A program made the position numbers and the translations under genes. A stretch of DNA of 64,000 nucleotides, from positions 5,827 through 69,826 of the forward strand of contig CACPHU010000007.1 in the NCBI GenBank assembly GCA_902633855.1. The letters run 5' to 3'. Below, piece after piece: positions 40,246 to 41,518 of this stretch; within the stretch, counting starts at the first letter, position 1, and the number at the start of each line of letters is the position of its first letter. The stretch is from an uncultured OCS116 cluster bacterium. GTDB taxonomy: Bacteria; Pseudomonadota; Alphaproteobacteria; Rhizobiales; TMED25. The notes beneath the pieces are model-generated. The model worked only from the letters and a program-made list of their open reading frames with translations. It was not told the DNA's origin and made no database searches.

Positions 40246-40530
40246 TTATACATCATTTAGCCAATGTTCATATATCTCAAGCTCTATCGTATCAGAATCT
40301 TTACCTGAATAATTATCCCAAACATCCATTTGCTTGAAGCGGCATCTGTATAGCGTTACTATTTTTGGATCTTTTTTGCACAAAGCAATCTCTTCTGGAT
40401 TAGGGTACCTACCACAAATTCTTTCAATAACACCCTTTTTTCCCCTTATATATGCGGGTGTCCTACAATGACCGGTTGAACTCCGGCTATCGACAGTTAT
40501 TTCATCATTTATTTTGAATTTTGTATCCAT
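40246..40530 (-). CDS. nitrile hydratase beta subunit, C-terminal domain only
   Basis: 94 aa from ATG 40530, 4 nt after the upstream stop. FKINDEITV..GHCRTPAYIRGKKGVIE..LYRCRF..DVWD..IELEIYEHWL matches the C-terminal barrel of NHase beta (GH.R.P.Y.RGK.G motif). Confidence 0.8.
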   Translation of the reverse strand: MDTKFKINDEITVDSRSSTGHCRTPAYIRGKKGVIERICGRYPNPEEIALCKKDPKIVTLYRCRFKQMDVWDNYSGKDSDTIELEIYEHWLNDV

Positions 40531-40534
40531 AGCT

Positions 40535-41518
40535 TTACTTCGGTAATCTAACTCCAACAAGATAATCTCGAGCCACAAGTTTTGATAATTCAATTTCGGA
40601 TAAGCCTTCAGTATTTGACGGCCTCGGTGGTAAAATTAAATATCTCATATCAGCGTTTGAGTCATGAACCTTTATTTCTTTGCTTTCGGGTACAATTGTA
40701 CCAAATTCTGCCAATACCTCACGTGGCTCGTGCACAACCCTAGATCGGTAACTTCTTGATTTATACCAAGAAGGTGGCATACCGAGTAAAGTACGCGGGT
40801 AGCAAGAGCATAATGTGCAGACAACGATGTGGTGAACAGTATCTGTTTGGGGCATGCATATAATATCAGCAAAAGTCTCAAGTTCTATACCAATATCAGA
40901 TATTGCTTTTTTTGCATCCTTTACGAGCGCTTCTTTAAATAAGTTGTCATGCCATGCTTTAGCTACAACAGCTTTCCCTCTATTTGGAAAAACATTATCA
41001 AACTGCTCAATTTTTAGAGTAATATCATCATTTGTAATTAACCCTTGATCAATGAATATTTGCGCAATCGCAAGTGTATCAAAATAGTAATCAGGTGGTC
41101 CATCGCCACTTTCATCTTCTTGAAAATCTGACATATTATGTAAATGTGGTTTGCCATCATGTATGTGATTGATACTAGCCACATCTGGCAGGTCCACAAT
41201 TGGCACATCAAATTCAGAAATTTTTTTTGATTTTATTTTCTGAAAAAGCTCTGTATCATAAATTCCCTTCTGGATGCAGATATTGTGAAGTGATAAACAG
41301 TTCCTCTCAAAATATCCAATCTCAAAATATTGGTCACCGAGCGCTTCAGTGTGGTATCTAAGCTCATCCAGCGTAATGATACGTTTTGAGGAAACCACAA
41401 TGCGAAGAGCATTTGCGTATTTTTCCCAGTGCGTCATATTATTATCAGTGGTGTCAATTGGCAGTGACTCTTCTCCGCCAACGTCATGGGGTCCCATTTT
41501 TAAGTAATTTTTATCCAT
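40535..41518 (-). CDS. fusion protein: nitrile hydratase beta N-terminal domain + complete cobalt-type alpha subunit
   Basis: 327 aa. Residues 1-100 ([30 protein letters not shown]..) resemble the beta N-terminal domain. Residues about 140-327 resemble alpha ([49 protein letters not shown]). CTLCSC is at 40802..40819. Confidence 0.82.
   Translation of the reverse strand: [327 protein letters not shown]

Follow-up and report, generated by a model that had tools for sequence, protein, structure and literature searches.

The window analysed here, a 64-kb stretch of contig CACPHU010000007.1 from an uncultured OCS116 cluster bacterium (G+C content 36%), contains two adjacent minus-strand open reading frames (ORFs) that together encode the parts of a putative cobalt-type (Co-type) nitrile hydratase (NHase). 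ORF A (40535..41518, 327 aa, stop codon TAA at 40535..40537) fuses the helical N-terminal part of a β subunit (βN) to an α subunit, and ORF B (40246..40530, 94 aa), whose ATG follows the TAA of ORF A after 4 nt, encodes the C-terminal, SH3-like barrel of β (βC) as a subunit of its own. Pfam places NHase_beta_N (PF21006) on residues 9–98 of ORF A (41225..41494; E 3.5e-11, 43.7 bits, the cut-off being 21.5) and NHase_alpha (PF02979) on residues 149–323 (E 5.8e-67, 225 bits), inside an α domain occupying residues 149–327 (40538..41074), while NHase_beta_C (PF02211) is found on residues 3–92 of ORF B (E 3.4e-18, 66.3 bits) and is absent from ORF A; the α and βC matches are likewise above their gathering cut-offs. 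An earlier note, made from the letters of this stretch, had described about 100 residues of βN and a full Co-type α in ORF A, with βC alone in ORF B. The domain models agree with this division, and the coordinates, 4-nt gap and CTLCSC motif at 40802..40819 that it gave all hold, on the minus strand, against the ORF list and the sequence. Two start codons are conceivable for ORF B (40531..40593), the ATG at 40530 (94 aa) or a TTG at 40560 (104 aa, with a 26-nt overlap with ORF A), the latter being the choice of gene callers in the identical loci L001–L006.

Thr and Tyr in the VC(T/S)LCSC(Y/T) metal claw mark the cobalt type of NHase, and in the enzyme of Pseudonocardia thermophila (PtNHase) βArg52 and βArg157 are second-shell residues that hydrogen-bond the oxidised cysteines. 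The claw of ORF A, C234-T-L-C237-S238-C239 followed by Y240 (40802..40819, minus strand), reads VCTLCSCY, the Co-type signature, and aligns with the claw of P. thermophila α. Mapping onto PtNHase β, with the reference sequence verified against PDB 3vyh_B, places the equivalents of βArg52 and βTyr68 at R54 (41357..41359) and Y69 (41312..41314) of ORF A, and that of βArg157 at R23 (40462..40464) of ORF B, all on the minus strand, supporting the earlier suggestion that the two β arginines reside on different polypeptides. R54, Y69 and the claw segment V233–R242 are invariant in an alignment of 17 diverse fusions, as are H21, R23, T24 and P25 among 20 aligned βC proteins. In solved NHases the Arg and Tyr that correspond to R54 and Y69 touch the oxidised Cys ligands. 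These alignments show the full set of catalytic and second-shell residues of a Co-type NHase, spread over two polypeptides.

Searches of PDB sequences gave a similar picture: the α part is closest to Co-type α chains (P. thermophila, Bacillus and P. putida, E 1e-50 to 1e-56), followed by Fe-type α chains (1e-40) and the γ subunit of thiocyanate hydrolase (SCNase, 1e-39); the βN part has a sole match, Comamonas β (2e-6); and ORF B matches the C-terminal 90 residues of β chains as well as SCNase α. An AlphaFold2 (AF2) model of ORF A, with a mean predicted local distance difference test score (pLDDT) of 77, resembles the Co-type α chains 3qxe_A and 1ire_A (Foldseek E ~1e-17, target-normalised template-modelling score ~0.8), and the model of ORF B (pLDDT 95.2) superposes on the C-terminal domains of NHase β chains with a TMq of 0.85–0.91.

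Both ORFs are intact, and the exact ORF A protein occurs on 18 contigs from different samples, all six displayed loci of this kind having the same order, in which a katG-like gene diverges from ORF A, ORF B and a VOC-family gene. The katG-like gene encodes a catalase-peroxidase (41623..43755, plus strand; Pfam peroxidase in related loci). In two marine DNA runs that are independent of each other, contigs span 40251–41732 and 39678–41252 with no gaps or indels. Two metatranscriptome runs yielded contigs at 40389–40624, which crosses the junction between ORF A and ORF B, and at 40486–40780, 40818–41145, 41006–41388 and 41138–41551, so that ORF B shares an RNA contig with the 3′ end of ORF A. RNA word depth over the NHase genes in these two metatranscriptomes is 2–5, compared with 55–95 over the divergent katG, and a promoter scan gave nothing beyond shuffled expectation. 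ORF A and ORF B are thus transcribed, and as a pair they are conserved and evolve under constraint.

The segment that joins the two halves of ORF A, residues 99–148 (41075..41224, minus strand), consists of the C-terminal tail of βN and a His/Asp-rich arm. Alignment of the fusions shows that it is conserved, with F103, P106, L110, P111, H127, E134 and G138 retained together with the His/Asp runs. In operons that encode βN, βC and α as separate genes (split-β operons), the α proteins begin with a similar arm, for example MxxHDHDH...DEGPPSEYEIM, which aligns with residues ~115–150 of ORF A; the supposed linker is therefore α's own N-terminus. The earlier note was right that a junction lies between βN and α, but what it took for a linker equals this arm.

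A further observation concerns the α N-termini of 149 loci. A non-iterated hidden Markov model (HMM) built from stand-alone βN proteins finds a match in the helical region at the N-terminus of α in 106 of the 149 at an independent E < 1e-3, compared with none of 149 shuffled controls, and the motif common to both is roughly LL.EKG.(I/L)T..E(I/L)R. With such a βN-like module in α N-termini, ORF A carries the module more than once (41075..41224); an ancient duplication or convergent evolution might explain the likeness.

A homologue search with ORF A returned 3901 matches, and architecture was read on the best 120. Such a search for the same architecture had been proposed in the earlier note; it finds the fusion retained in more than 120 homologues (45–95% identity), with PF21006 and PF02979 both present in 119 of the best 120, which are mostly 317–349 aa long, the lone exception being a 265-aa protein that covers 78% of the query. 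These homologues come mostly from marine metagenomes; those to which a source gives a name are called 'nitrile hydratase subunit alpha' and are assigned to Alphaproteobacteria or Rhodospirillales. The combination PF21006+PF02979 is also precomputed as a Pfam architecture in sequence databases under the same label. The closest genome is a metagenome-assembled genome (MAG) labelled Rhodobiaceae bacterium NAT146 (L007, 95% identity). Among marine Alphaproteobacteria the family is often met, SAR116 and Rhodobiaceae-like and Rhodospirillales-like MAGs included, and single clusters formed at 90% identity hold up to ~290 member sequences; the fusion architecture is abundant in the ocean. βC adjoins the fusion at some distance from the window sequence too: in P0027 (60% identity), in P0047 (51%), in P0006, where adjacency was judged by matching Tara coordinates, and in P0009 (64%), where an amine oxidase gene, the fusion and βC are followed by a GST gene on the opposite strand. 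In P0111 (46% identity; L183:3154-5002) the order is VOC, βC and fusion, followed by several luciferase-like monooxygenase genes.

To place the arrangement among its relatives, we surveyed 172 loci, reading their stop-to-stop ORFs with profiles that took the window proteins as seeds. The survey is biased to relatives of the query, being made up of pattern scans (the best 80 of at least 600) and 18 loci fetched via fusion proteins; the pattern-scan loci are mostly split-β operons, all 10 loci with the fusion followed by βC belong to the 18 fetched, and the fusion counts are not a census. Within this sample, βN, βC and α occur as three separate, overlapping genes in 105 loci, a form confirmed by independent gene calls (110, 95 and 214 aa, with 4-nt overlaps). 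The remainder comprise βC and α on mostly short, truncated contigs (16 loci), the fusion alone (13), the fusion followed by βC (10), βC, α and βN in that order (8), a single full-length β (8), α only (5) and other orders (7). An exhaustive search with residues 1–148 of ORF A recovered 251 representatives at E <= 1e-3, mostly stand-alone βN proteins of 90–135 aa. They include two whole fusions of the eukaryote type, P0271 (457 aa) and P0358 (528 aa), in which βN, βC, a His/Asp-rich stretch and α follow one another and which share the RTPGY..G and NPE.LA motifs of βC with ORF B. A 4351-aa protein with 14 βN-like stretches (P0257), an Ig-like repeat surface protein, was discarded as spurious.

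Two further gene orders among the surveyed loci deserve mention in their own right. The order βC, α, βN (L025, L078, L084, L135, L136, L150, L155 and L163, including MAGs labelled Dongiaceae, Chitinophagaceae and Accumulibacter) is a cyclic permutation of βN, βC, α. In L086:7186-8279, L082 and L141 (a Dehalococcoidia MAG and others), two to three tandem copies of stand-alone βN lie upstream of βC and α.

The earlier note had drawn its comparison with SCNase, toyocamycin NHase and choanoflagellate enzymes, but the closest known system is ScNHase, which Streptomyces canus CGMCC 13662 encodes as anhD-anhE-anhA with no activator gene (Guo et al. 2019, 2020; PMC7329996), and a split β is the rule among relatives of the window genes (105 of the 172 loci). 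By homology AnhD corresponds to the N-terminal and AnhE to the C-terminal part of β, the composition is AnhD2E2A2, and AnhD serves as metal chaperone and subunit-swapping chaperone, forming AnhD2A; the enzyme hydrates nitriles, and its authors state that it resembles eukaryotic NHase (PMC7329996). Like the window genes, ScNHase combines a Co-type α with a β cut at the same place (βN ~10 kDa, βC ~11 kDa). We compared it through its description and its genomic relatives, one of which is an uncultured Streptomyces MAG (L012); for each of the three window parts the nearest unfused homologues are relatives of this type, and their α proteins bear the same His/Asp-rich arm. ScNHase differs in having three separate polypeptides in the order βN, βC, α, whereas ORF A fuses βN to α with βC downstream, and in forming a 2:1 complex of βN with α for swapping, whereas the βN:α ratio in the window is fixed at 1:1.

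Eukaryotic NHases, found in Monosiga brevicollis and others (PMC2603476, PMC3323583), also carry β N-terminal to α, joined via a His-rich stretch and with a Co-type motif, but they fuse a complete β (~450–530 aa), whereas βC of the window is encoded separately. In the SCNase ScnBAC of Thiobacillus thioparus (PDB 2dd4), ScnB corresponds to βN, ScnA to βC and γ is α-like; there the three subunits are free and the α domain is more distant. Toyocamycin NHase (ToyJKL) of Streptomyces rimosus likewise has three parts, with β made up of PF21006 and PF02211 proteins, but its α is free, its order is α, βN, βC and it belongs to a deazapurine biosynthetic cluster, a context absent from the window. Canonical Co-type NHases (P. 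thermophila 1ire, Pseudomonas putida 3qxe) share the claw, the βArg52, βTyr68 and βArg157 equivalents and the α fold, and differ in having a single β of 220–230 aa, a separate α and an activator gene of their own. The fusions reported by Foerstner 2008 and Marron 2012 are whole-β eukaryotic ones only, and the latter states that fusion genes were absent from prokaryotic datasets. The earlier note knew of no described βN-α, βC arrangement, and we too found no description or characterisation of it in the full-text literature, in which subscription journals are thinly covered and absence is not proof, although the architecture is catalogued in sequence databases. We describe βN-α with a separate βC as a putative NHase that appears, from its sequence, to be a new architectural variant of a characterised enzyme family.

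The nearest unfused relatives of the window proteins are all split-β operons (βN 40–47%, α 52–54% and βC up to 55% identity). One of them, L013, ranks first or second for βN, α and βC alike, and L012, L015, L022 and L024 are each among the top six for two parts. When stand-alone βC genes that might serve fusions lacking a neighbouring copy were sought, the three βC homologues looked up (45–48% identity) all proved to lie inside βN, βC, α operons. In a neighbour-joining tree of α domains, made without bootstrap, the main marine fusion clade, which holds the window and 318-aa subclades, is monophyletic and sister to the split-β group of these nearest relatives, while L011, L020 with L026, L010 with L014, and L096 are placed elsewhere among split-β operons. 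Because these fusions are scattered in the tree, we tentatively suggest that the βN-α fusion arose several times.

One locus illustrates how this may have happened. On contig Ga0114996_10170898 (L097:632-1642), the TAG of βN is followed after 9 nt by the in-frame ATG of an α that starts MSDHHDHDHDH, with βC neither between the two genes nor in the 136 nt past α. This looks like the fusion before its two genes were joined, or like a fusion that has come apart again, and the loss of one stop codon from a locus of this type would yield the fusion. A plausible course would thus begin with an ancestral βN, βC, α operon from which βC was removed from its middle position, after which the stop codon of βN was lost to give βN-α, with βC retained directly downstream in the lineage of the window. 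Only the placement of βC, which is downstream in the window and upstream in P0111, would need an extra event. The claim in the earlier note that the arrangement cannot arise by simple fusion or fission was overstated in view of the L097 βN, α locus, the order with βC preceding the fusion and the apparently polyphyletic fusions.

We consider it likely that ORF A and ORF B form a two-polypeptide Co-type NHase of the clade that includes ScNHase and the eukaryotic enzymes, derived by rearrangement from a βN, βC, α operon. Several observations weigh against this assignment. The α of ORF A scores below the equivalog cut-off of the NCBIfam model nitrile_alph (TIGR01323; 219 against 249.85 bits), which the α of a split-β relative, L028, passes (257.4 bits), and scores for nitrile_beta (TIGR03888; cut-off 152.2 bits), a model that presumes a single full-length β chain, reach 35.2 and 55.4 bits; the missed cut-offs point to ORF A and ORF B as a divergent subfamily. 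The pocket residue βTrp72 of PtNHase is Asn73 in ORF A, and with a pocket that differs in this way the enzyme may act on something other than a classical nitrile. AF2 confidence is low at the claw (residues 235–240) and at the linker (pLDDT 50–57 over the junction), the fold match of βN to β chains is weak (Foldseek 8i6n_B, E 0.17, probability 0.97), and neither an amidase nor an aldoxime dehydratase gene was found beside ORF A and ORF B. Finally, some fusions, P0029 among them, have no βC within 4–8 kb; in the sample this holds for 13 of 23 fusion loci (L008, L009, L010, L011, L014, L020, L026, L090–L094 and L096), which raises doubt whether βC is obligatory. Among these loci, L008 is a SAR116 single cell with an amidase gene divergently upstream of the fusion, L020 is an isolate, Falsiroseomonas sp. 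E2-1-a4, and L010, L011, L014, L020, L026 and L096 are of high G+C content.

The unusual arrangement, the missed equivalog cut-offs and the low RNA depth might all be expected of an artefact or a decaying gene, such as a mis-assembled or frameshifted β/α operon or a pseudogene remnant. This explanation is hardly credible, and is already effectively refuted, by the intact state of both ORFs, by the 18 contigs of differing sample origin that carry the identical protein, by independent DNA and RNA contigs that cross both junctions without indels, which answers the earlier note's call to exclude an assembly artefact, and by an architecture that is kept at 45–95% identity with its catalytic residues invariant. 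Another possibility is a member of the NHase superfamily that hydrolyses something other than nitriles, such as an SCNase. SCNase too has a split β, and in that direction also point the loss of the βTrp72 equivalent and the best Foldseek match of the ORF B model, SCNase α 2dd4_A (TMq 0.91, rmsd 1.2 Å), whose fold is predicted to be nearly identical. Yet the SCNase model thiocyan_alph (TIGR03887) gives ORF A only 170.7 bits, lower than the nitrile_alph score and far below its own cut-off of 291.45, the PDB matches of the α part favour Co-type NHase α over SCNase γ, the closest characterised clade, that of ScNHase, hydrates nitriles, and no sulfur-oxidation or cyanate context was seen adjoining the two genes; we regard an SCNase-like activity as very improbable.

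A different explanation is that the N-terminal domain acts chiefly as an internal activator, a self-subunit-swapping or metal chaperone of the NhlE/P14K/AnhD kind, and less as a structural half of β, so that βN-α would be a self-maturing minimal hydratase with βC as an optional enhancer. Co-type accessory proteins are indeed homologous to βN, with cross-matches between TIGR03889 and TIGR03888, AnhD acts as a chaperone, the α subunit ToyJ has been reported to be active by itself (Nelp 2014, as cited in PMC7329996), and the 13 loci without nearby βC would fit. However, residues 1–145 of ORF A match nitrile_beta (NCBIfam, 5.5e-07), aligning, as do stand-alone βN proteins, to positions 3–100 of that model (3–93 for the βN domain of ORF A), and gave no match to the accessory model TIGR03889 at E <= 0.01, whereas a genuine accessory protein (L041) matches the latter at 1.4e-18; an identity of this domain with the accessory proteins was rejected on these grounds. 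The βArg52 and βTyr68 equivalents are moreover invariant, and βC in the window directly follows, is conserved with R23 invariant and shares an RNA contig with the 3′ end of ORF A. In ScNHase all three parts are required, AnhD and AnhA without AnhE giving 0.2% activity (PMC7329996). Taken together, a mainly activating role seems unlikely, although the activator role and the structural β role of βN are not mutually exclusive. The fusion loci without nearby βC also suggest a further-reaching version, in which βN-α is a self-sufficient, self-maturing unit that works without βC and acts on an unrecognised but abundant marine nitrile or related compound; we give this little credence.

Returning to the two-polypeptide NHase, solved NHases and ScNHase suggest how it might work. 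The parts would assemble as a canonical αβ protomer, probably as (βN-α)2(βC)2, with Co(III) bound by C234, C237, S238 and C239, of which C237 and C239 would be oxidised, and the enzyme would hydrate a nitrile to the amide. By analogy with ScNHase, maturation may proceed without a separate activator, the chaperone role of βN being supplied in cis at a fixed 1:1 stoichiometry, so that βN would be both a structural half of β and an in-cis maturation factor; no accessory-like or second βN-like ORF was found in the 64-kb window. The His-rich arm possibly aids metal capture. As the fused α cannot be swapped alone, maturation would have to differ from the AnhD2A swapping model.

At a distance of 12 nt downstream of ORF B lies a gene for a 169-aa protein of the VOC/glyoxalase family (39724..40233; Pfam Glyoxalase E 7.8e-20), in the same orientation, as the earlier note had observed. 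Gene neighbourhoods are not conserved among the fusion loci. It adjoins the fusion only in the near-identical loci L001–L007, the neighbours of more distant fusions being GST/amine oxidase, DUF2721 or other genes, and the VOC protein of L183 is not orthologous, having only a 29-residue local match to that of the window. The VOC gene was accordingly rejected as a conserved partner of the NHase genes and is probably a neighbour, not a functional part; it had no RNA contig coverage in the two metatranscriptomes that cover ORF A and ORF B.

Industry uses NHases as major biocatalysts, and their maturation, involving cobalt insertion, cysteine oxidation and self-subunit swapping, is still debated. 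A natural covalent βN-α with a free βC offers a ready test of whether subunit swapping is needed, because the fused α cannot be exchanged alone, and the βN-α and βC pair would provide a compact, activator-free scaffold for engineering. The fusion also fills a gap in a series that leads from three genes through βN, α to βN-α (with βC), beside the whole fusion of eukaryotes. Foerstner 2008 noted a large, separate proteobacterial α branch in the Global Ocean Sampling (GOS) data and did not comment on its architecture; as the fusion family is common in marine Alphaproteobacteria and forms clusters of up to ~290 members, it probably accounts for part of that branch. The βN-α, βC arrangement is genuine, occurs widely and is transcribed; it reorders the parts of a known three-subunit family and encodes a putative enzyme. 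If βN-α were in fact a self-sufficient unit, it would represent a distinct and ecologically important enzyme class, beyond a variant of gene order.

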